Virus record (IMG/VR): IMGVR_UViG_3300035181_000748 | Coordinates: 1-26,402 of that record | DNA from: a virus | Lineage: Duplodnaviria; Caudoviricetes | Direction: 5' to 3' (one strand) | DNA length: 26,402 nucleotides | Part shown: piece after piece, positions 1-13,124 of the stretch | Layout: each line of letters starts with the position of its first letter | How positions within the stretch are numbered: position 1 is the stretch's first letter | Program-made: the position numbers and the translations under genes | The notes under the pieces: generated by a model | The model's database searches: none | What the model saw: only the letters and a program-made list of their open reading frames with translations | What the model was told of the DNA's origin: nothing

Positions 1-141
1 GTCAGCAAGGCGTACCTGATACTATGGCACGTCCAGCAGGCGATGGAAACGGAGTGGGTGGAACTGCCGGAAGAGGTGTGGCCGGAGGCGGAACGTCTGC
101 ATCTTCTGGCGTTACCGCTGACAACGCCGCAAATCCAGTAG
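1..141 (+). CDS. 3' end of a putative overprinted small gene (+1 frame within the giant ORF)
   Basis: Frame 1 reads VSKAYLILWHVQQAMETEWVELPEEVWPEAERLHLLALPLTTPQIQ* (stop 139-141), which looks globular, while the giant frame here is G/A/T-rich low complexity. Confidence 0.5.
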   Translation, partial: VSKAYLILWHVQQAMETEWVELPEEVWPEAERLHLLALPLTTPQIQ

Positions 142-3100
142 CGAATCAAACCACTGCGCAAAACACTATCTCGCCTGTCCAGCAGCACAAACCAGTTGTC
201 AATCAAACTGAACCCATCACGCCTCCGCCGCAGCAACATGGCGCACCAGATGCGGTCATTAAGCCTGCAAGCCAATCGGCTGGTGAGCAGGCACCTATCA
301 TCACTCCCGATCGGAGAGCACAGGGCGCACAGGAGAAGCCAGCGAAGACTTCCAGTCCGCGCCAGAAGGTTTCCGTCGATACGTCACGCCACACGCTATT
401 GCAGGCTATCGCCATCAAGGGCGTGGATGCTACAGACCCACTAGCAAACGACTTGCGCAAATCGCTGGGCTTGTCTGACGGCAAGAACATGCGGGTCAAT
501 ATTCCAGGCCATCCGCCCATGTGGCTATTCCGCAAGAATGGGAAACGGCTGGACACGATTGCCGGAGAACTATCGCAATCCGGCGAGCGTTACTTGGATG
601 CGCATGACCGGCAGGAAATGCTGGACAAGTTGTATGACAATCCAGACCATATGACTCCAGAAGGAACAGCAACCAAGGCGCAGCGCGAGTATGAGGCCGA
701 GCAGGCCGATCATCAGGCCGGGAGCAAGGAAAGATTTGAATCCACGATAGCGACGCATGATATTTATGATGAAACTACCGATGCAGAATGGGAGAATATC
801 CTTGAAGACGGTCGTCTCATGTCGGCAGAAGAAGCCGATAAATTTTTCGCGGAACCCGCAGAAAATCAGGAGCATGGAAATGATCAGCAAAGAACAGCGC
901 AAGAGGCTAGAAAAAATGACGCCGGAGGAATTGCGGAGAACGGCACTTCTGGCGCTCAAGAAACGGGCGGCAAAGCGTTTGGCCTTGCAGGGCAAACCAA
1001 CGAAGAAATAAACGCTGCAGCACAAGCGGAACACGAAGCCGAGATTGCAAAGATCAAGGCTGAACGTGACGCGGCGAACAAGCGCGCAAAAGAAGCAGAA
1101 GAACAACTCAAAGCAGACAACACCTCAAACGGCAATGCCGCTGACGCTTTCAGCATGACACAGCCTGAGCCAGTCAGCAAGGCGCAGCAGAAGGCTATCG
1201 ACAAGAAGAAAGCGGAAACAGAACTGGTCGGGCAGTCTGATCTTTTGAGCCAGTCCAATGCGCCAACATCCAACCAGTCAGAATTCGAGAAGATCGGAAT
1301 GGTTCGGTCTGGAGATTCGTGGCGATGGAAAGGGAACGTTGACGGCGATGCCTACGACAGCGTAACAGTCAGGCCGTGGAAGGGCGGTTTCACCGTTACG
1401 ACTGGCGGGTATTTCAATTCGCCATTGGGCGGAAACGCTTTACCCACAAAAGAAATCGGAACGTTCAAGACGGAGAGCGAAGCGGTTAGCGCGGCCAAGG
1501 AACAGATAGCATCCAAGCAGGTTGCGAAAGAAGATCATACCGGTCAACCATCCATCTCAGCAACGGAAAACAATCCCACCGATGCTGCGAAATCAGAGTT
1601 TTCGACGCTGGAGAGAGACCTTATTTCCAAGGCGCACGATAAAGAATATGATGGCGATGTTGGGGTTGTTGTAGGCGGCGGGAAGGTTAAGTTTGTACCC
1701 ATTGAAGACGCCATAGACGCCGCTAAAAAAGCAATCGCGTCTGGCGTTAAAGCAGTTCCGTTCCAGATTCACAATGCCACAGGTATCCGTATTGGAGATG
1801 TCCCTTTGGTGTTGGAAAAAGTAGGCGCCGAATTTGAATCGACAACAAAGGAATCGCAAAATGCAAACTCTTTACAAACCAAGCATGTATCCCAAAGAGC
1901 TTCGGGAGAAGATCAATCATATGTCGCAGACGGCCATCGAGATAGCCAACCGATGGGCGCTGGGCTGGCCGAGCACGGTCAAGGACTTGATCACAACCGG
2001 GGAGTATCTGGAAGCACTCAAGGAGCAGGAACGCGAGGAAATCAAGGTGAAACTGGAGCCAGGGCTGAACCATCTACCGAGTTGGGAGAAGGCCGAGTTG
2101 TACGGCCTGAGTCAGAACCCGCCAGCGGCGTCAATCGACACGAGACCACTACCGAAGAAGGAACAGACCACGTAATTGACGCCGACGAGATCGGCAAAGG
2201 CGGACTTGGCAAGAAGTACCGCGACAACATAGCGGCCATCAAGATTCTAAACACCATCGAAGCCGATGGGAGAGACGCAACACCAGAAGAGCGCAAGGCG
2301 CTGTCAAAGTACGTTGGATGGGGCGCCATGAAAGGCCTGTTCGACCCTAACAACAAGACATGGGCCAAGCAGCATGATGAACTCAAGGAATTGCTGACCG
2401 ATGAGGAATTCCGTGCTGCACGCGCATCAACCCTGGATGCGCATTACACCAGCCCAGAAGTCGTGAACAGCATGTACGATGCGCTGTCCCGCCTGGGATT
2501 CAAGTCTGGCCGCGTGCTAGAGCCGTCTGTCGGTGTGGGAAATTTCTTCGGCTTGATGCCGCGAGAGATGCGCAACTCCTCGCAACTTTACGGCGTGGAA
2601 CTCGACTCGCTGACCAGCCGCCTGGTGTCTGCGCTGTATCCGAAAGCCAAAATCGCCAAGGCCACAGGCTTCCAGGACTTCGAGATACCGTCAGAATACT
2701 TCGACGTGGTGATCGGCAACCCGCCGTTCGGATCGTATCCGTTGGTTGATAAGGAGCGCAGCCCGTATTCTGGGTTCAGCATTCACAACTATTTCCTCGC
2801 CAAATCAATCGACAAGTTACGGCCAGGCGGAATCATGGCCGTTGTCGTCTCTCACAATTTCCTTGATGCACAGGATTCCCGCGTGCGCAAGTGGATCGGA
2901 GAACGCGCCGGCCTGGTCGGCGGAGTGCGCCTACCAAACACGGCATTCAAGGATAATGCTGGCACAGAGGTTGTGACCGACATCCTGATCTTCCAGAAAC
3001 ACGACAAGGACGGGCTTCCGGATTCTATCGCACCATGGCAGGACGTGGTTGGGCAGATCAACATCAACCCCAAGACAGGGGAACACGCCACCCACAATGT

Positions 3101-6100
3101 CAATCAGTTCTTCGTAGCAAACCCGCAGTACGTGCTGGGCAAGCCATCAGCGGGCGGCACCATGTATTCGGCCAACGAATACACCGTTGAACAAGACGGC
3201 GACATCAAGAACGCATTGGCGAAGTGGGCCAAGGCTCTGCCGGAAAACATGTTCGACAACATCGACCGTGCAAGCGATGCCGCCGTGGTGGATATGGCCG
3301 TGCCCGATGGAATCAAGATAGGATCATACTACGTCGATGCCAACGGTAAGGTAATGCAACGCGGCAATGACCTGATGGGCAATAAAACCGCTGTCGCATG
3401 GGAGCCGCGCTTTGATTCGCAGGTCGGGCGCATGAAGGGCATGATCGCCATTCGTGACGCGCTGCGCAAGCAGATGCGCCTGGAGCGATCCGTTGACGCA
3501 ACTGAGCAGGACATCGAAGCCAACCGTGCAGAACTGAACCGGCTCTATGACGACTTCTTCAAGAAGTACAAGCACCTGAACAGCACCACCAACCGCAGCG
3601 TCTTCCTTGACGACCCTGAGTCCCATCTAATTCAGGGTCTGGAATTTGACTATGACAAGGGGATTGGCAAGGCGACCGCCGAGAAGGAAGGTATTGAACA
3701 ACGCGAAGCCAGCGCCACCAAGGCCGACATTTTTCGGCGCCGTGTCTCCTTCCCGCCGAATGATCACATGACCGTAACCACGGCCAAGGACGCGCTGCTG
3801 GCATCACTGAATTACCGCGGCAAGGTTGATCCTGCCTACATGTCCGAGGTCTATGGTAAACCCATGGATGAGATCGTCAAGGAACTTGGCGATGTGGTGT
3901 TCGACGATCCGCAAAGTGGCATCGTGACCGCTGACGAGTACCTATCTGGCGATGTGAAAACCAAGCTGGACGAGGCCAAGTATGCCGCCCAGGACAATGC
4001 CAAGTACCGCAGAAACGTGGAGGCGCTTGAAAAGGTAATCCCGAAGGACAAGACGCCGAGCGAGATTTCCGTGAGCATCGGCGCATCGTTCGTGCCTGCC
4101 GATGTTTATGAGCAGTTCGTCAAGCACATCTCAGGCGGCAGCGCGACCGCCAGCTACATCAAGGCAACCGGCCAGTGGTTGATGGCTTTCAACGCGGGCA
4201 ACGATCCGTCCCTTAATACGGGGCGCTTCGGCACGTCAGACATGTCAGCACAAGACCTGTTCCAGTTGACCATGATGGGCCGTGGCGCTGTGGTGAAAAA
4301 GACGATGCGCAATTCTGACGGTTCCACCACCACGATCCTGATGGAGAAGGAAACCGAAGCCGCCCGAGAAAAGCAGAACGCCATCAAGGCAGAGTGGCAG
4401 AAATGGCTATGGCAAGACCCGGAGCGCGCTGACCGCATCGCATCTATCTACAACGACAAGATGAACCGGATTGTCGGGCGTAAATATGACGGATCGCACA
4501 TGAGTTTCCCCGGCATGAATCCGTCCTACTCACTGCTGGCGCACCAGAAGAACGGCGTGTGGCGTGGCTTGCAGACCTATCAGGTGCTCTACGATCATGT
4601 CGTTGGTGCCGGAAAGACCTTCGAGATGGCAACGCTGGCAATGGAGATGCGCCGACTAGGCATCGCCCGCAAGCCGTTGGTCGTGGTGCCAAACCACCTG
4701 ACGCTGCAATTCCGCAGTGATTTCACCCGCCTGTACCCAGGATCGGACATTCTGGTTGCAGCGCCAGAGGATTTCAGCAAGGACAACCGGGAGCGACTGT
4801 TTGCCAAGATCATCACTGGTGATTGGGATGCTGTTGTGATCGGCCATTCTTCCCTGAAAAAAATCGGCCTGCCAGAGAAAACCGAGCTCGCCGTCCTGCA
4901 AGAGCAGATATCCGAACTGACAGACTCCATAGAGGACATGAAGCGAGCGCGCGGCGACAAGCGCATCACCGCTGACATGGAGCGCATCCGCAAGAATCTG
5001 GATGCCAAGATGAGGGACAAACTGGCCGCAGTGGGTAAGCGCAGCAAGATGGTCACGTTCGATGAACTAGGTGTTGATGCCATGTTCATCGACGAAATGC
5101 ACGAGTTCAAGAACCTGGCTTACAACACGACGATGGATCGCAACCCAGGCATGGGCAATCCTGCTGGCTCGGCAAAAGCCTTTGATCTGTTCGTCAAGAC
5201 CCGCTGGCTGTTCGATACCTTCGGCGACAAGACCCCGTTCATCACCGCAACTGGAACGCCGATTTCCAACTCGCTGGTGGAGATGTTCAACATGCAGCGG
5301 TACATGCAGTACCCGACTTTGAAGCGTCAGGGGCTGAACGTGTTCGACGCATGGGCCAAGCAGTTCGGAAGCGTGGAGAACGTCTATGAGGTTTCCCCGT
5401 CTGGATCGGGATACCGGCAATCTACCCGCTTTGCCAAGTTCACCAATCTTCCGGCGTTGATGAGCCTCTACAACACGTTTGCCGATACAGTCACTCTGGA
5501 CGACCTGAAAGCGCAAGAAGAAGCGCAAGGAAATAGGTTCCCTGTGCCAAAGATGGTAGGCGGTCGTCCGGTTCTGGTGGTAGCCAAACGCTCTCCGTCC
5601 GTGGCTGCACTGATGGGCGTGCCCGAGGCGCAGACCGACGAGGCTGGAAACATCCTGTTCGGCGCCAATCTGGATTCTGATATTCAAATCAAGCAGGACG
5701 AGAAATCAGGAAAATGGACGGCCAAAGTGGGCGATGCGCGTCTGGGGACGTTCGAGACCGAGGAAGATGCCCGTCTCAAGGTGGTCGAGAGCGCACTGAC
5801 TCCAGTGGTATCGGTTGATTCGGAGTCCATCCTAGGTAGGTTTGCCAACCTGCGCCAACTTACCAAGGAAACGAAAGGCAGGGTCAATGCGCTGTCGCTG
5901 ACCGGCGAAGCCAACAAGGCAGGGCTTGATTATCGCCTGATTGACCCGAAAGCTCCAGACTTCCCAGGCTCCAAGATCAATCTGGCCGTGGATAACATGA
6001 TGCGCATCTACAAGCAGTGGGATGCCGACAAAGGCACGCAACTGGTGTTCTGCGATCTGTCGATTCCGCTGTCTGCCCGTTCCAGCTACTCCAACAAGTC

Positions 6101-9100
6101 GCGCCGCCTGTACGTGCGCGACGAGGCGCGCGGCATTGAGATGAAGCGCGGCACCATGCACGCCATGCCAGGCCACGAGGATTTGCCGTACTTCGTGGTG
6201 CAGCGCGGCGATAAGGAATCTAAGCGATTCGACGTGTATGACGCTGCCTCCGGCCTGCGCCTGCAATCCGATTTCCGCAGCAAGCAGGACGCCATCGACG
6301 CCGCCATTGGATTTCTTAGCGACGAGGACAAGCGGCAGAAGTGGATCAACGCGCGCGAAGCAACTGGCGAAATAGAGCAAGGCGAAATAGACGAGTACAA
6401 CAACGAAAACGACATCGACGTTGATGATCCGTCCATGTTCTTCACTCGGGATGATGTGGCTGGAGTTTCTGGCTCTGCCAAGTTCTCGGTGTACGACGAC
6501 ATCAAGGCCAAGCTGATAGCCAAGGGCGTGCCGGAGCATGAGATAGCTTTCATACATGACTACAATACCCCCACGGCCAAGGACAAACTTTTCAAAGCAG
6601 TGAATCATGGAGGTGTGCGCTTCTTGCTGGGTTCCACGCCAAAGATGGGCGCTGGCACCAACGTGCAAGAGCGCTTGGTGGGCCTGCATCACATTGACGC
6701 GCCGTGGCGTCCGTCTGATCTTGAGCAGCGAGAAGGGCGCATCATCCGCCGCGGTAACAAACTGTATGAACGCGACCCGGAAAACTTCGAGGTTTTCATC
6801 GGTCGCTACGCCACCGAGCAGACCTATGACACCCGGCGCTGGCAGATTCTTGAGCACAAGGCGCGCGGCATCGAACAGTTACGCAACTACGACGGAACGC
6901 TCAACGAAATCGACGACATCGAGGGCGAAGCCGCTAACGCTGCCGACATGAAGGCCGCCGCATCAGGAGACCCCCTGATCCTTGAGGAAACCAAACTGCG
7001 CACTGACGTGCGGCGCCTGGAGAATTTGCAGGCAGCATACGCCGATGAAGTGCTGTCCATGACACGCAAGTCCCGTAGCGCGCAGGAGTACGCAGATAAA
7101 TCTGGGCCAGCATTCGTGCGCGAGATCAGGGAGTCCATTGGCACCACGGCCAAGCACCCTGTAGATAAGGACGGATTCGCGCCAATCAGCGTTCAGGGAG
7201 GCAAGGCTCTGTCAGACAAGGATGCCGCCAACAAGGCGCTGGCTTCCGTATTCGAAAACGTACGCAGTCACATGATCGACACGGCTTCAATTCAATATCG
7301 TGGCCTAGAATTCGAGTTGAAGCATGTTTCCGGTAACGTCATCATGTACACCCCTACCGGCATCGGCGGGACATGGGGCGCCACAGATACGTTCTCTCCG
7401 TCTGGCATGGTGCAGCGCCTCAAGAACTACATTGACCGGCTTCCTGCCATGCTGGATGACACGCTTGCCGGCATCGAGAAATCGAAAAAGGATGCTGCCT
7501 CGATGCGCGAACTTGCCAAGCAGCCATTCCCGCAAGCCGCCGACCTAGAGAGAGCACGAGAGGCCCACAAGAAAGTTCAGCGTGCGCTGATGGCGAAAGG
7601 GCCGGAAGTTCCTGATGAGCAGAAAGCCGCGGTAGTTTCCGGTATTGAGCAGCAGAAGGCGAAACTGCGCGAACTTGGGTTTGGCGATGCGCTGAACGAG
7701 CTTTCCGGGTCTGCCAAGTACAGCCGATCAGCAACACTCGCCCGCAACCCGCACACCGAATCCACACTTCGAGACGCAATCAATTCATCCTTCCCAGGGA
7801 CTAAGAACTTTGCTGACTCGCTGATCGCAACGGGCAAGTTCCACATTATCGGTAGCGAGGATATTGGGAAGCATCTGGGTCAAGGTGCGAATTTCAGCAA
7901 GGCATCGCAGACAGATACGCCAGCATTCAAGAAGTGGTTTGGCGATAGTAAAGTGGTGGACTCAGATGGCAATCCGCTTGTGGTATCGCATTTTACCGAC
8001 GCAGACGATATAAGCGTGTTTGACCGTGGACGCCTAGGATCGAATACAGAAAGCAACACAGATCAAGAACAGGCGTCAAAGATGGCGAGACTCGGTTTTT
8101 GGTTTTCTGATTCTGATATTCGCTACACGCATGATCGTGGGAGAGGTGTGTTCGCGGATAACAAGATTGATGCTTTTCTCGCTATCTCTCATCCAAAGGA
8201 ATATGCCACCTTTGATGAAATGTGGCATGAATCTGATTCCTATGAAACCGCAAAAGAATGGCGCACGAAACTTGAACACGATGGTTACGATGGCGTTGTG
8301 GTGCGTGATGATAATGAGCTAGGAGGAACATCATATGTAGCCTTCCACCCAAACCAAATAAAATCCGCCACCGGAAACATCGGCGCCTTCGACCAAACCA
8401 ACCACGATATTCGCTATTCCAAAGACGGCAGAATCCTGGCATTTGTCAAAAATGGAGAAACATTCTTCGTCCACGACAACATCAGCCAGACAGACGATAG
8501 CGTGAAGGGTTTGTTGCTGCACGAGCTTGGCGATCACGCGCTGATGCTCGGACGCACTGATGCAGAATTCAAGAATATACTGCGCCAGTTCAAGATGATG
8601 GGCAATGCTGGAAACGAGAAGGTTATAGAAGCGCAAGCGCGAGTCCCGGAAGGAACGCCAGCGCATTTTGTTGACGAGGAAAGCCTGGGGTATTTCCTGG
8701 AAGCCAATCCAGAACTGCCCTTTTCTCAGAGAGTCATCGCATGGTTCCGCGACGCCCTGCGCAAGCTGGGAGAGAAACTTAAGGGCATCCAGAAATTGCA
8801 ATGGATTCAGTGGGCAAACAGGCTGAACGAGTCTGATATCGTCTACATGGCTACCCAAGCCACACGCGGCGCCACCGCAACGCTTCGTAACTCGCAGGAC
8901 AATTCCGGTAAAGGCGTTCCGCTATTCAGCAAACAGGCGCAGAATGATCACTATGAAGTACAACCAGACGCCGCTCGCAACCTGCCTATCGACGGGGCCG
9001 AACTTACGGCCTTACGTCGTGCTGCGGCTGGTATCGAAGCGGCAGAGCGCGGCATTACATTCACCGTCAACGCAGATGGTCGAGCCATCGTCACAGGCCC

Positions 9101-12100
9101 AGCGCGCGTCAAGGTTCCCGCTCGATTCCGGAGATTCGCCAACGACCACGGACTGACGCTGGTTGTCCAGCGCTCATACGGCCCGTTTGTTAATTCCAAC
9201 ACTCCCATGCCAATTGCCTACCGCGAGGCTGGAGCACTGTATTTTGGCGAGATTGGAGAAAACCACCTTGACCGCACAGGAAAGACACGGTTCAGCAAAC
9301 CAGACCAGGAAAACAAAGCACGGGCGTTTGACGGTAACGGCATGACCGCTGCCGCCGTGCGGGCAGAAATCTCCCCTATCCTTGCCAAGTGGAAGCACGG
9401 AAACATCCAAGTCGTGCAGTCCATATCAGAACTTCCAGACAGCCTTCAACGCGAGGTTCATGCAGTGGGCGCGGAAGGAGACATGGAAGGCGTCTATGTC
9501 GGGAATGGCACAGTGTACATGGTGGCAGACCATTTGCAGAACGCCAGGCGCGTACATGAAGTTCTGGCGCATGAGGCTATAGGCCATCTCGCAGCCGAGG
9601 AATTGACAGACCAGGCCGACTACCAGCGCGCCATCAATAGCGTGCAGACGCTGGATCGCATCGGCAACAAGACCATCCGCGCATTGGGGGATGCCGTAGA
9701 CGAACGCCAACCTGGATTGTCCGCAAAGAGCCGCGCTAAGGAAATCATGGCGCTGGCTGTGGAGAGAGGCAGCTACAGGGACATTCCGCTGCTGCAAAAG
9801 GCGATAACGTCCATTGTGTCATGGGTGAAAGCAAGGTTGCGCGCCATGGGTTTGAACACCAAGTGGGTAAACAGCATGAGCGAAGGCGAGGTGTTTTCCA
9901 TGCTGCGTCAGGGTGAGCGAAGACTGGAAAGTGAGAAGACAGGAAAGGATGGTGCCGTGTCTGGCGCAGCCATGGCGAGTAGGGGCGGAGTGGATGGAAT
10001 TATTCGGCGCCTTAAGTGGAAGGACAGCGCAGTATTGAATGGATTGCCGTCGTATCGTGGCGATGGTTTTTCGATTTTTGCAACAACCGAAATACCCCAT
10101 GAGGATGATTTTCAAACGCACCCGTATGCGCTACATTGGGGGCATATCGCGCAGATTCCAGAAGGGTCGAAGCCTTACCAATTCACCATTCGGGGTGAGA
10201 AAGGAGTCGGCGCTATCGGCGACATGAAGGCCGACGTAGACGGTAATGGTAATATCGTGGCAATTCACGATATAAACATTTATGGAAAACGCGCAGGGAT
10301 TGGCGCTAAGATCGTGGCAAGCATCGCCGCGAATTCGCCATCACCAATCAAGATTGTAGAAGCCATCCCGCAATCACAGGGATTCTGGAGAAAGGTAGGA
10401 CTCAATGAACTCGACGACAAAAACACCGGATACATCTCCGCCACCGATGCCGCGAGATATATTCTCGGCCATGAGAGAAGAACGGCGCAAGGCTTCAAAG
10501 AAGGCGTCAATAGAGTACCAACTGACGCCGGAGCAGAAGGCGTTTATAGAGAAGGAATTGAAACCGGAGAAGTAAGCCCGGAAGAAGCTGGAAAGTATCA
10601 GTTTTCGCGCTCTTCCATCATTGGCGCATCAGGTCGCGCCTACACCCCAGAGCAACTTGCTGCGATGGAGCGCACCGGCTCTGTCGTCACCAAGAAAACC
10701 ATCCAGGAAACAATCAAGTCGCTCTGGCAGGACGCCGGTAAGAAGCTCGCCCAGGGCGTATTCGACCAGTTCAGACCCGTTCGTGATCTGTCATCGCACG
10801 CCTATACGTTGATGCGTCTGTCAAAGGGCGCACCAGGCGCATTTGAGGCGTTCATGCACCACGGAAAGCTATCGTTGCGCGATGGCGCTTATGATGCCGA
10901 TACCAGCGGAGGTGTGATGGAGAAGGTGTTTTACCCGCTTGGAAAGGAATCCACCGACTTCTTGCGCTGGGTCGCAGGCAACCGCGCTGAGAGACTGGCG
11001 ACCGAAGGCAAGGAAAACCTGTTCACGCCTGACGATATTGCAGCGTTCAAATCGCTTGCAACTGGCGATACCGACTTTGACTACACATTACCGAACGGTA
11101 ACGTCACACGCAACCGGATGTTGATTTACCGCGACTCGCTCAGGAAGTTCAACGAGTTCAACAAGAACGTGCTTGATATGGCAGAACAGTCAGGGCTGAT
11201 TGATCCAGAAAGTCGCCACCTGTGGGAGCATGAGTTCTACGTCCCGTTCTACCGCACGGTAGACGACAATGACGGCGGCGTTCGCGGCATGAATATCAAG
11301 CAAGGTGTCGTGCGTCAGGAAGCATTCAAGAAACTCAAGGGAGGCGACGAGAAGCTGAACGATTTACTCGCCAATACCCTGATGAATTGGGCGCACCTGA
11401 TAGACGCCAGCGCCAAGAATCGCGCGGCAACCGCTACTCTGCAAGCCGCTGTTAAAGTCGGCGCCGCAAGACTTGCATTGGCCGGAGATAAGAAAACAGT
11501 ATGGCACATGAGCGGGGGACAAAAAGTAGAATACAAGGTTGATGACCCCTACCTGCTGGACGCAATCAGCAGCCTGGAGTATGCCGGACTGCGAGGCCCA
11601 GCCATGGACGCCATGTCCACCATGAAGCACTGGCTGACGGTAGGCGTCACCGCATCACCATTCTTCAAGGTGCGCAACCTGATCCGCGACTCCATTCAGT
11701 CGATAGCCACCGCGGACATGGGCTATAACCCGCTGAGTAACGTGATAAAAGGATACAAGCTGACTGACCGCGCGGCGCAGGAGTATGTCTCGGCGCTGGC
11801 TGGCGGAGGCTTGATTCGATTCGGCACCATGCTGGAAGGAAACGAGGCAAGCCGCGTGCGTCAACTCATCAAGCAGGGCGCGAGCGACCAGCATATCCTT
11901 GATAGCGAGAGCAAACTACGCGCATTCTACGACAAGTACGCGGAACCATTGATTTCTGCATACGAAGAACTCGGAAATAGAGGCGAGGAAATTAACCGCA
12001 TGGCGCTATACGACTCGCTAATCAGCAAAGGCGTAGACCATGCGACCGCATCGCTTATGGCACGCGACCTGATGGATTTCTCCATGCGTGGCACTTGGGG

Positions 12101-13124
12101 AACGATTCGCTTCCTGACTCAGATCGTTCCATTCATGAACGCGCGCTTGCAGGGGCTTTACAAACTTCGTCGCGCGGCGAAAGAAGACCCGGCACGATTC
12201 GCCATCGTGATAGGGGGCGTGGCGCTGGCATCGCTGGCGCTGCTGGCCGCATACGGGGATGACGACGACTGGAAGAAACGCGAGGATTGGGATCGGGATA
12301 ATTACTGGTGGTTCAAAATCGGAGATGTTGCATTCAGGATTCCTAAACCGTTCGAGATTGGAGCAATCAGCACGCTGGCGGAAAGAACAGCAGAGTATGC
12401 TTTTGATGATGAAATGAAGTTCAAACGATTCTCGGGGCTGGTGCTGAATAACATCGAGAATCAGCTTTCAATGAACCCTGTGCCGCAGCTATTCAAACCG
12501 ATCATGGATGTATATTCCAACCAGGACAGCTTCACCGGAAGGCCGATTGAAACGATGGGCATGGAACACCTGGCACCAGACTATCGCTTCAATCAAAATA
12601 CCAGCATGATCGGGCGCGGTATCAGCACCGCAGGTAATACCCTGACCGGAGATCATTTCTTGTCTCCCGTCCAGGTAGATCATTTAATCCGGTCGTACTT
12701 TGGCTGGCTGGGCGCATCCGCCGTCGGCATAGCAGATATTGCGGTTCGCTCCGCCAGCAACGAGCCTACACGGCCTGCGCTGGACTATTGGAAAACAATT
12801 ACCGGAAGCATGGTTTCAGAGTTGGAAGGCGCGCCAAGCCGATACGTGACAATGATGTACGATCAGGCGCGCGAGATCGAGCAGGCGTATGGAACATGGC
12901 GCGAACTCATGAAGGAAGGTAAGCAAGAAGAGGCGGCGGCATACCGCGCCGACAATCAGGATGAACTATCAAGGTACAAGCGAGTCGAGGCGATCAAGCG
13001 CCAGGAAACGATGCTCAACAACCGCATCAAGTTTATCGAGCGCAGCGACCTGGATTCGGATGAGAAGAAGGCAAGGATCAATGCGCTACGTCAACAACAG
13101 GATCAGGTTGCCAGGAGGTTGTAG
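24..13124 (+). CDS. Giant DarB-like phage polyvalent protein (N6-adenine MTase + SNF2-type helicase + zincin-like x2 + ART-like + GNAT-like + LPD38-like); probably 5'-truncated by the window
   Basis: 4366-codon ORF whose frame stays open back to base 3. MTase motif I VLEPSVGVGNF (2514-2546) and motif IV NPPF (2718-2729). Helicase motifs HVVGAGKT (4596-4619), DEMH (5091-5102), ATGTPISN, GAGTNVQ and WRPSDLEQREGRIIRRGN. HELGDH (8520-8537) and HEAIGH (9570-9587). TPAFKKWFGDSKVVD...GYDGV...YVAFHPNQIKSATGN (7908-8420). KRAGIGAKIV...GFWRKVG (~10290-10400). DRDNYWWF...RIPKPFEIG (~12290-12365). Confidence 0.93.
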   Translation: MARPAGDGNGVGGTAGRGVAGGGTSASSGVTADNAANPVANQTTAQNTISPVQQHKPVVNQTEPITPPPQQHGAPDAVIKPASQSAGEQAPIITPDRRAQGAQEKPAKTSSPRQKVSVDTSRHTLLQAIAIKGVDATDPLANDLRKSLGLSDGKNMRVNIPGHPPMWLFRKNGKRLDTIAGELSQSGERYLDAHDRQEMLDKLYDNPDHMTPEGTATKAQREYEAEQADHQAGSKERFESTIATHDIYDETTDAEWENILEDGRLMSAEEADKFFAEPAENQEHGNDQQRTAQEARKNDAGGIAENGTSGAQETGGKAFGLAGQTNEEINAAAQAEHEAEIAKIKAERDAANKRAKEAEEQLKADNTSNGNAADAFSMTQPEPVSKAQQKAIDKKKAETELVGQSDLLSQSNAPTSNQSEFEKIGMVRSGDSWRWKGNVDGDAYDSVTVRPWKGGFTVTTGGYFNSPLGGNALPTKEIGTFKTESEAVSAAKEQIASKQVAKEDHTGQPSISATENNPTDAAKSEFSTLERDLISKAHDKEYDGDVGVVVGGGKVKFVPIEDAIDAAKKAIASGVKAVPFQIHNATGIRIGDVPLVLEKVGAEFESTTKESQNANSLQTKHVSQRASGEDQSYVADGHRDSQPMGAGLAEHGQGLDHNRGVSGSTQGAGTRGNQGETGARAEPSTELGEGRVVRPESEPASGVNRHETTTEEGTDHVIDADEIGKGGLGKKYRDNIAAIKILNTIEADGRDATPEERKALSKYVGWGAMKGLFDPNNKTWAKQHDELKELLTDEEFRAARASTLDAHYTSPEVVNSMYDALSRLGFKSGRVLEPSVGVGNFFGLMPREMRNSSQLYGVELDSLTSRLVSALYPKAKIAKATGFQDFEIPSEYFDVVIGNPPFGSYPLVDKERSPYSGFSIHNYFLAKSIDKLRPGGIMAVVVSHNFLDAQDSRVRKWIGERAGLVGGVRLPNTAFKDNAGTEVVTDILIFQKHDKDGLPDSIAPWQDVVGQININPKTGEHATHNVNQFFVANPQYVLGKPSAGGTMYSANEYTVEQDGDIKNALAKWAKALPENMFDNIDRASDAAVVDMAVPDGIKIGSYYVDANGKVMQRGNDLMGNKTAVAWEPRFDSQVGRMKGMIAIRDALRKQMRLERSVDATEQDIEANRAELNRLYDDFFKKYKHLNSTTNRSVFLDDPESHLIQGLEFDYDKGIGKATAEKEGIEQREASATKADIFRRRVSFPPNDHMTVTTAKDALLASLNYRGKVDPAYMSEVYGKPMDEIVKELGDVVFDDPQSGIVTADEYLSGDVKTKLDEAKYAAQDNAKYRRNVEALEKVIPKDKTPSEISVSIGASFVPADVYEQFVKHISGGSATASYIKATGQWLMAFNAGNDPSLNTGRFGTSDMSAQDLFQLTMMGRGAVVKKTMRNSDGSTTTILMEKETEAAREKQNAIKAEWQKWLWQDPERADRIASIYNDKMNRIVGRKYDGSHMSFPGMNPSYSLLAHQKNGVWRGLQTYQVLYDHVVGAGKTFEMATLAMEMRRLGIARKPLVVVPNHLTLQFRSDFTRLYPGSDILVAAPEDFSKDNRERLFAKIITGDWDAVVIGHSSLKKIGLPEKTELAVLQEQISELTDSIEDMKRARGDKRITADMERIRKNLDAKMRDKLAAVGKRSKMVTFDELGVDAMFIDEMHEFKNLAYNTTMDRNPGMGNPAGSAKAFDLFVKTRWLFDTFGDKTPFITATGTPISNSLVEMFNMQRYMQYPTLKRQGLNVFDAWAKQFGSVENVYEVSPSGSGYRQSTRFAKFTNLPALMSLYNTFADTVTLDDLKAQEEAQGNRFPVPKMVGGRPVLVVAKRSPSVAALMGVPEAQTDEAGNILFGANLDSDIQIKQDEKSGKWTAKVGDARLGTFETEEDARLKVVESALTPVVSVDSESILGRFANLRQLTKETKGRVNALSLTGEANKAGLDYRLIDPKAPDFPGSKINLAVDNMMRIYKQWDADKGTQLVFCDLSIPLSARSSYSNKSRRLYVRDEARGIEMKRGTMHAMPGHEDLPYFVVQRGDKESKRFDVYDAASGLRLQSDFRSKQDAIDAAIGFLSDEDKRQKWINAREATGEIEQGEIDEYNNENDIDVDDPSMFFTRDDVAGVSGSAKFSVYDDIKAKLIAKGVPEHEIAFIHDYNTPTAKDKLFKAVNHGGVRFLLGSTPKMGAGTNVQERLVGLHHIDAPWRPSDLEQREGRIIRRGNKLYERDPENFEVFIGRYATEQTYDTRRWQILEHKARGIEQLRNYDGTLNEIDDIEGEAANAADMKAAASGDPLILEETKLRTDVRRLENLQAAYADEVLSMTRKSRSAQEYADKSGPAFVREIRESIGTTAKHPVDKDGFAPISVQGGKALSDKDAANKALASVFENVRSHMIDTASIQYRGLEFELKHVSGNVIMYTPTGIGGTWGATDTFSPSGMVQRLKNYIDRLPAMLDDTLAGIEKSKKDAASMRELAKQPFPQAADLERAREAHKKVQRALMAKGPEVPDEQKAAVVSGIEQQKAKLRELGFGDALNELSGSAKYSRSATLARNPHTESTLRDAINSSFPGTKNFADSLIATGKFHIIGSEDIGKHLGQGANFSKASQTDTPAFKKWFGDSKVVDSDGNPLVVSHFTDADDISVFDRGRLGSNTESNTDQEQASKMARLGFWFSDSDIRYTHDRGRGVFADNKIDAFLAISHPKEYATFDEMWHESDSYETAKEWRTKLEHDGYDGVVVRDDNELGGTSYVAFHPNQIKSATGNIGAFDQTNHDIRYSKDGRILAFVKNGETFFVHDNISQTDDSVKGLLLHELGDHALMLGRTDAEFKNILRQFKMMGNAGNEKVIEAQARVPEGTPAHFVDEESLGYFLEANPELPFSQRVIAWFRDALRKLGEKLKGIQKLQWIQWANRLNESDIVYMATQATRGATATLRNSQDNSGKGVPLFSKQAQNDHYEVQPDAARNLPIDGAELTALRRAAAGIEAAERGITFTVNADGRAIVTGPARVKVPARFRRFANDHGLTLVVQRSYGPFVNSNTPMPIAYREAGALYFGEIGENHLDRTGKTRFSKPDQENKARAFDGNGMTAAAVRAEISPILAKWKHGNIQVVQSISELPDSLQREVHAVGAEGDMEGVYVGNGTVYMVADHLQNARRVHEVLAHEAIGHLAAEELTDQADYQRAINSVQTLDRIGNKTIRALGDAVDERQPGLSAKSRAKEIMALAVERGSYRDIPLLQKAITSIVSWVKARLRAMGLNTKWVNSMSEGEVFSMLRQGERRLESEKTGKDGAVSGAAMASRGGVDGIIRRLKWKDSAVLNGLPSYRGDGFSIFATTEIPHEDDFQTHPYALHWGHIAQIPEGSKPYQFTIRGEKGVGAIGDMKADVDGNGNIVAIHDINIYGKRAGIGAKIVASIAANSPSPIKIVEAIPQSQGFWRKVGLNELDDKNTGYISATDAARYILGHERRTAQGFKEGVNRVPTDAGAEGVYREGIETGEVSPEEAGKYQFSRSSIIGASGRAYTPEQLAAMERTGSVVTKKTIQETIKSLWQDAGKKLAQGVFDQFRPVRDLSSHAYTLMRLSKGAPGAFEAFMHHGKLSLRDGAYDADTSGGVMEKVFYPLGKESTDFLRWVAGNRAERLATEGKENLFTPDDIAAFKSLATGDTDFDYTLPNGNVTRNRMLIYRDSLRKFNEFNKNVLDMAEQSGLIDPESRHLWEHEFYVPFYRTVDDNDGGVRGMNIKQGVVRQEAFKKLKGGDEKLNDLLANTLMNWAHLIDASAKNRAATATLQAAVKVGAARLALAGDKKTVWHMSGGQKVEYKVDDPYLLDAISSLEYAGLRGPAMDAMSTMKHWLTVGVTASPFFKVRNLIRDSIQSIATADMGYNPLSNVIKGYKLTDRAAQEYVSALAGGGLIRFGTMLEGNEASRVRQLIKQGASDQHILDSESKLRAFYDKYAEPLISAYEELGNRGEEINRMALYDSLISKGVDHATASLMARDLMDFSMRGTWGTIRFLTQIVPFMNARLQGLYKLRRAAKEDPARFAIVIGGVALASLALLAAYGDDDDWKKREDWDRDNYWWFKIGDVAFRIPKPFEIGAISTLAERTAEYAFDDEMKFKRFSGLVLNNIENQLSMNPVPQLFKPIMDVYSNQDSFTGRPIETMGMEHLAPDYRFNQNTSMIGRGISTAGNTLTGDHFLSPVQVDHLIRSYFGWLGASAVGIADIAVRSASNEPTRPALDYWKTITGSMVSELEGAPSRYVTMMYDQAREIEQAYGTWRELMKEGKQEEAAAYRADNQDELSRYKRVEAIKRQETMLNNRIKFIERSDLDSDEKKARINALRQQQDQVARRL
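880..1011 (+). CDS. Putative overprinted 43-aa basic helical protein (+1 frame within the giant ORF)
   Basis: SD CAGGAG (867-872) lies 7 nt before ATG 880. Product MISKEQRKRLEKMTPEELRRTALLALKKRAAKRLALQGKPTKK. Confidence 0.55.
   Translation: MISKEQRKRLEKMTPEELRRTALLALKKRAAKRLALQGKPTKK
1861..2175 (+). CDS. Putative overprinted 104-aa protein (+1 frame within the giant ORF)
   Basis: SD AAGGA (1848-1852) lies 8 nt before ATG 1861. Product MQTLYKPSMYPKELREKINHMSQTAIEIANRWALGWPSTVKDLITTGEYLEALKEQE... has normal globular composition, while the host frame is G/S/R/E-rich and disordered-looking over the same span. Confidence 0.72.
   Translation: MQTLYKPSMYPKELREKINHMSQTAIEIANRWALGWPSTVKDLITTGEYLEALKEQEREEIKVKLEPGLNHLPSWEKAELYGLSQNPPAASIDTRPLPKKEQTT
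10471..10575 (+). CDS. Putative overprinted 34-aa peptide (+1 frame) directly after the GNAT-like module
   Basis: MREERRKASKKASIEYQLTPEQKAFIEKELKPEK*. TATATT lies 7 nt upstream of the ATG (possible leaderless start); no good SD. Confidence 0.4.
   Translation: MREERRKASKKASIEYQLTPEQKAFIEKELKPEK

Follow-up and report, generated by a model that had tools for sequence, protein, structure and literature searches.

Complete small genes that lie on the same strand and out of frame inside a larger gene are already known as a kind. comS is embedded in srfAB, and in the embedded pairs Rz1/Rz and comS/srfAB both products act in one pathway. According to the main text of PMC9144972, Rz1 is embedded in the Rz spanin genes, and gp69 of JC1, a giant protein, is virion-associated. 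The main text of Iyer et al. 2017 (PMC5512222) describes a methylase-helicase dyad in polyvalent proteins and reports that P1 DarB is packaged in the virion and protects injected DNA from restriction in cis. Here we describe a DarB-like gene in IMG/VR record IMGVR_UViG_3300035181_000748, a phage contig of 26,402 nt (the window), together with small open reading frames (ORFs) nested in it in the +1 frame. One of these, ORF C, is a real gene that is conserved in its own frame, as judged from its sequence relatives, and it is almost certainly translated.

The giant gene, whose 5' end lies beyond the contig start, and the parts that concern ORF C are the following.

3..13124, plus strand: giant polyvalent DarB-like gene, 4373 codons, frame 3, 5'-open (PHROGs phrog_10089, DarB-like antirestriction, E = 0)
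1848..1852, plus strand: Shine-Dalgarno (SD)-like AAGGA before ORF C, duplex energy -5.6
1861..2175, plus strand: ORF C, 104 amino acids (aa), predicted five-helix protein, +1 frame, directly before the LPD36/methylase module; probable distant TnpV relative
2175..3074, plus strand: LPD36-like helical module and N6-adenine methylase of the giant, the putative partner region of ORF C
aa 805-1003 of the giant protein: N6-methylase (Pfam)
aa 1525-1670 (ResIII) and aa 2174-2251 (Helicase_C) of the giant protein: SF2/SNF2 helicase (Pfam)
aa 2653-2796 of the giant protein: ART-PolyVal (Pfam)
aa 4087-4256 of the giant protein: LPD38 (Pfam)

In the giant protein an N6-adenine methylase with an NPPF motif is fused to an SF2/SNF2 helicase. 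As in the DarB-like polyvalent proteins treated in the main text of PMC5512222, P1 DarB among them, the LPD36-methylase-SNF2 dyad, ART-PolyVal and LPD38 stand in one virion-type protein; the LPD36 label follows from position and from the GXGU motif given in that text, with no profile match. P1 darB differs in that it begins directly at this module, and no nested gene was found in it. With Rz1/Rz and comS/srfAB the window shares a complete small same-strand gene out of frame inside a larger one. Unlike those pairs, however, it has a 13-kb polyvalent host gene with at least two nested families, selection is dominated by the nested frame, the host frame reads as linker, and a partnership between nested and host products is only proposed. 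Literature searches, judged mostly from listings, turned up no description of genes nested inside DarB-like ones: by term search, the main text of PMC5512222 does not mention TnpV, "linker" or "overlapping", and PMC8788219 does not mention darB, TnpV, helicase or methylase. Nesting inside DarB-like giants is a variant of embedded genes that we did not find in the literature.

The original prediction had proposed four hidden genes beneath linkers of the giant protein. All four ORFs (A, B, C and D) are indeed open in frame 1 of the window (+1 relative to giant frame 3), and the two well-spaced SD sequences are present, AGGAG 7 nt before ATG880 (B) and AAGGA 8 nt before ATG1861 (C). The proposal that such ORFs are genes is borne out for C and well supported for A, and B and D are not confidently separable from chance. 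When the 27 +1 ORFs of at least 30 aa in the giant were scored for codon coding-likeness, C (0.19), D (0.16), A (0.15) and B (0.02) took ranks 1 to 4; B stood barely above the fifth-ranked ORF (0.01), and the other 23 had a mean of -0.40 (standard deviation, 0.21). The score used the best start of each ORF and the linkers are purine-rich, so that this ranking is suggestive only. Taken together, A and C exceed chance.

ORF C has 54 close matches, and 120 representatives of 50%-identity clusters were also hit, some few of them being repeat proteins that matched spuriously. Searches of Pfam, PHROGs and PDB sequences returned nothing useful for it, and the ESM Atlas gave unnamed clusters with a weak TnpV lead (0.75). 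The AlphaFold model is confident and has five helices, with a predicted local distance difference test score of 87.4 and a predicted template modeling score of 0.75. All 11 viral loci found via C carry it nested in +1 inside an open frame of more than 2000 codons; among 25 loci in bacterial genomes, 21 are free-standing and two nested, and L018 and L019 fall in neither count. The search for free-standing homologs that the original prediction called for thus succeeded for C, and it gave no distant relatives for B or D; the frame comparison in homologs likewise favored C, with conservation in +1 and an aligned start, and did not decide the matter for B and D.

That comparison used 16 nested copies, one per contig. 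Over C, identity reached 61% in the +1 frame but 39% when the giant frame was compared; by +1 codon position the differences were 0.30/0.26/0.47, so that wobble follows +1. In the next 90 giant codons the relation was reversed (74% in the giant frame versus 42% in +1), with 1 to 5 +1 stops in each copy. The giant frame over C nevertheless contained no stop in 14 copies, versus 31.5 expected under synonymous reshuffling. Since the giant frame stays open while C is conserved in +1, both frames are maintained, with the small gene dominating. The whole ORF thus lies inside a larger open frame, both frames are stop-free across relatives, and the nested frame is under purifying selection. The start ATG is aligned in 16/16 copies, with a purine-rich, SD-like stretch before most of them; homology begins at the Met of this ATG, and the free-standing copies begin at the same Met.

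Two side observations concern nested C copies. At L100:5748, L101:5751, L102:6219 and L103:6219 two C-family profile matches lie in +1 upstream of the methylase, which suggests tandem duplication of the nested gene. In one relative (L097 / L045, near 9477) the giant frame is broken 158 codons into the methylase region and the nested C is intact.

The linkage of C to the methylase was assessed at loci chosen by the methylase alone, not by C. Ten of the first 12 such loci carry C, and the remaining two carry a sister family in the same slot. Among the best 80 of 541 viral methylase loci, which are 63 non-redundant loci and also those nearest to the window phage, 78 had a +1 match before the methylase and none had a +2 match (profile E < 0.05); 41 of these matches were to the C family and 37 to sister or TnpV-like families, a few being self-matches, since some profile sequences came from the same contigs. 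The other two loci have similar-looking ORFs without a profile match. The C family is also present, unannotated, in a cultured phage, Pseudomonas phage 8P (31545-31808 of its record), and the sister family lies unannotated under the giant coding sequence in 21 cultured-phage records. In 14 distant records picked from 120 listed, a nested +1 candidate was found in nine: Bcep22, Y7, AhaGv, USP_18, Acidovorax and Xanthomonas plasmids, and three Firmicute-type loci. In the three last-named loci the nested +1 ORF, lying inside SNF2/methylase genes, is TnpV above the Pfam cut-off. Even in very distant phages C keeps its slot just before the methylase, amid an N-terminal region that otherwise turns over. 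Judging from these loci, DarB-like genes of phages, plasmids and Firmicute elements have long had C or a relative of it as a fixed component.

As had been predicted, annotation misses the nested genes: phage records omit the small gene, and some records mis-split the giant. Three plasmid records do list the small gene, yet they start the giant downstream although the giant frame is open upstream. In the record of phage PBC5 (L052:3752-10309), orf33 ends in frame with a TnpV-like segment and the methylase frame opens at 9733, suggesting that the N-terminal half has been fused to the nested gene by a frameshift or an error in sequencing.

TnpV (PF14198) originates from Tn4451/Tn4453. At the Pfam gathering cut-off of 27 bits, PF14198 matched neither ORF C nor any of 75 family members, and it matched 19 of 25 members of the sister family below that cut-off; a PF14198 search of one Acinetobacter genome found nothing. 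In profile-profile comparisons C met the sister family with E = 0.001 and 0.004 (probability, 22% and 9%) and three TnpV with E = 0.045, and the sister family met a mixed TnpV alignment with a probability of 87% (E = 4e-6 over 34 columns). Like ORF C, TnpV is a small helical protein with a similar central pattern, and in the three Firmicute-type loci it is nested in +1 in SNF2/methylase genes. ORF C differs from it by an extra N-terminal helix, the IANRW-LGWP motif and the missing PF14198 match. The TnpV-like superfamily shares the slot, in +1, upstream of the methylase and inside the giant frame, and because this position is shared, the link gains support; ORF C is probably kin to TnpV.

A second nested family is represented at the start of the window.

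<1-141, plus strand: ORF A, the 3' 46 codons of a 68-aa +1 nested gene; second nested family, probably real

In a close relative ORF A is complete (68 aa, L001:4861-5067) and is preceded by an SD-like stretch. An iterated profile, started from three seeds picked by eye, gathered seven distinct sequences including that of the window (six relatives), all in +1 and none from the +2 control set; five copies for which distances were measured lie 1.5 to 2.6 kb upstream of the methylase. The whole ORF lies inside a larger open frame and is stop-free in both frames across relatives. A frame-specific filter independently flagged further nested families in relatives and a cluster of the A family, which has three members but two distinct sequences; identity in it is 36% in +1 versus 22%, a sign of purifying selection in the nested frame. 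The ESM Atlas rates ORF A as protein-like (score, 2704) with a weak helix-turn-helix lead, and against cultured phages only matches at E 7-10 were obtained. ORF A is probably a second nested gene family, and on these comparisons its translation is quite likely.

Related giants hold further +1 nested ORF families, at L043:3718-3831 and L004:4489-4626; at L038:6758-6934, L041:7493-7675 and L125:4479-5021; at L052:16559-16762, L053 and L128:12501-12914; and at L050:17956-18180. Some of them are better conserved in +1 than in the giant frame, and one family lies after the helicase. In another related giant a 105-aa helix-turn-helix-repeat ORF is nested in +1 (L044:7034-7351), which we presume to resemble the DNA-binding part of HNH homing endonucleases.

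The remaining two ORFs are unproven.

868..872, plus strand: SD-like AGGAG before ORF B, duplex energy -6.6
880..1011 (alternative start at 874), plus strand: ORF B, 43 aa (45 from ATG874), basic with a net charge of +10, +1 frame; unproven
10110..10470, plus strand: cassette before ORF D, a folded-looking part of the giant with no Pfam match, absent from the closest relative
10471..10575, plus strand: ORF D in the +1 frame, 34 aa, or 56 aa if started at ATG10405; unproven

ORF B is kept in one relative contig only, with 96% identity in +1 versus 89% in the giant frame, and no relative beyond this contig was found among the loci fetched. That contig keeps the start, SD and stop of B and lacks the module before it. 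ORF D has no clear SD at 10471 (duplex energy, -3.0), but a good SD (-7.8) precedes an ATG in the same frame at 10405. D and its cassette, which is GNAT-like by motif only, are absent from the closest relative and have no relatives in viral contigs or phages; the search with D and the cassette found one close protein, and two metagenome matches were rejected as spurious motif matches.

Two further comparisons bear on these ORFs. The skew by codon position of A, B and C, each compared pairwise with the closest relative, was considered as a decisive test and rejected: between A and B, the gap without an ORF has a similar skew (7/2/6), and a skew toward giant position 1 that is common to all of them does not discriminate. 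Among strain variants from four runs, none of the seven changes listed in D is silent in the giant and three are silent in D, versus 17 of 22 downstream variants silent in the giant (Fisher p = 0.0005). No listed change falls on the D start or stop, and 14 further differences lie outside the listing. A relaxed linker could give the same pattern, so that the variants do not decide the case of D. No RNA data set was listed as holding window 9900-10800, and this has no bearing on expression.

It is a nearly even prospect that C and A alone are genes, with B and D having arisen by chance in relaxed linkers rich in purines. The lack of distant relatives, the similar skew of the non-ORF gap and the missing SD at 10471 all favor chance, and against it stand the ranks of B and D within the top four of 27 by coding-likeness, the start, SD and stop of B that persist in a relative which lost the preceding module, and the variants in D. 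For B the prospects of being translated are evenly balanced, and for D they may be put slightly below even.

As to what C does, we tentatively favor, at a little under even confidence, the reading that the linkers are dual-coding DNA and that the C product is a partner which restrains or chaperones the methylase-helicase in the producing cell. C would be translated from its own ribosome-binding site by internal initiation, alongside the giant, and the G/A/R/E/Q-rich linker would be the off-frame shadow of the small gene. The small helical product would partner the methylase-helicase module, restraining or chaperoning the enzyme while the giant is made in the donor cell, and would stay behind when the giant is delivered, such that the enzyme acts on incoming DNA only. 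Restraint in the producing cell is proposed because enzymes of the DarB type act on DNA that has just been delivered. By being nested, C would be sure to be inherited and expressed together with the giant. A complex between aa 1-92 of C and a 755-aa LPD36-methylase-helical region, predicted from their own alignments with the helicase half left out, gave 0.39/0.00/0.09 in its runs, which speaks neither for nor against a partnership.

Several observations weigh against this partnership. No +1 candidate passing the filter was found in five of the 14 distant records, P1 darB included, and the enzyme module can thus exist without a nested partner. TnpV lies 0.8 to 3.5 kb from the methylase in Firmicute elements, and the homology between C and TnpV is a weak transitive chain. 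Free-standing C occurs in bacteria with no DarB-like gene nearby among the loci listed, suggesting that its activity may be independent of the giant. The idea that ORF C might be P1 Ulx was dropped; P1 darB shows no nested ORF.

Alternatively, C could be a loading adaptor that guides the giant protein into the capsid or a conjugative channel. P1 antirestriction requires extra proteins such as DdrA, DdrB and Hdf, and the giant is virion-associated in JC1 (both in the main text of PMC9144972); P1, with such helpers, shows no nested candidate. We nevertheless consider an adaptor unlikely, as phages share this nested family with plasmid or conjugative elements, whose delivery machines are unrelated to theirs. 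A linkage of C common to virion-type and conjugative elements, which share the enzyme and not the delivery machine, favors the enzyme as the partner. It is similarly unlikely that C and A act independently, as small effectors or regulators with anti-defense or DNA-binding activity for which the unconstrained linker is only coding space on a late transcript. Free-standing C copies kept in Nitrosospira and in mobile islands would fit such a role, as would the several unrelated nested families in these giants and the weak helix-turn-helix lead for A, but the fixed slot of C amid an otherwise changing N-terminal region does not.

The original prediction further suggested that the giant may grow by taking up blocks of genes, with small genes already present in them being read through out of frame. 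Module turnover is evident, D comes and goes with its cassette, a helix-turn-helix-repeat ORF is nested in one relative, and free-standing C homologs exist. For C, however, this was not supported: in a tree of 46 sequences (32 nested and 14 labeled free), the free copies form three groups inside nested diversity, and the starred branches force at least two changes between the nested and free states. The tree is midpoint-rooted, the root falling on the nested sister family, long branches meet, and L018 is labeled free without its frame row. In the free copies the -1 frame, formerly that of the giant, has 14 stops versus 49.6 expected across 21 non-independent loci, as if they had recently been freed from an overlap. 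Free copies interspersed among nested ones, together with few -1 stops, argue that C escaped from nesting and was not captured recently, and these patterns point to free-standing bacterial C copies being derived. We accordingly regard growth by read-through of captured genes as rather improbable, although ORF D may have been captured along with its flanking cassette, which the closest relative lacks. Free C homologs are kept in varied chromosomal contexts and mobile-looking islands (L023-L036, from Nitrosospira and Nitrosovibrio, and L012-L019); L028 holds a second, frameshifted copy, and the copies in L019 and L035 are broken.

It is very unlikely that ribosomes enter the +1 segments by frameshifting, to give truncated giants with alternative C termini, as the TnpV-like end of the long upstream ORF in the PBC5 record might suggest, given the aligned ATG with its SD-like stretch, the homology that starts at that Met and the free copies that begin there.

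Two observations touch the architecture of the giant gene as a whole. The word [FY]S[RK] recurs at window positions 7719, 7893, 8415, 8925, 9291 and 10602, the last right after ORF D, and marks apparent module junctions of the giant protein. In contigs from four runs, sequence matching window 1411-1440 is joined to 10307 onward (compared with the window by eye), implying variants that lack or rearrange ∼8.9 kb, including ORF C and the methylase-helicase.

For the preferred reading of C as a partner of the methylase-helicase, a wider extension can be drawn, which we hold to be speculative and improbable as a whole: DarB-like genes would carry a second gene layer, in which a TnpV-superfamily protein serves as the safety catch of the injected methylase-helicase in phages, plasmids and conjugative elements alike and A, B, D and others serve other modules, and bacteria and satellite islands would repeatedly have taken the catch as a free gene that blocks incoming anti-restriction proteins. 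In the giant anti-restriction proteins of phages and plasmids, low-complexity linkers may be reinterpreted as the shadow of real genes. What the window contributes is a second nested family, together with evidence for the derived state of free copies, and it exposes a fault of annotation, the small gene being omitted from phage records and the giant started too far downstream in three plasmid records. The uncharacterized TnpV family would gain a fixed genomic partner and a testable role, and Pseudomonas phage 8P, which is cultured and carries the same C family, makes the test a direct one.

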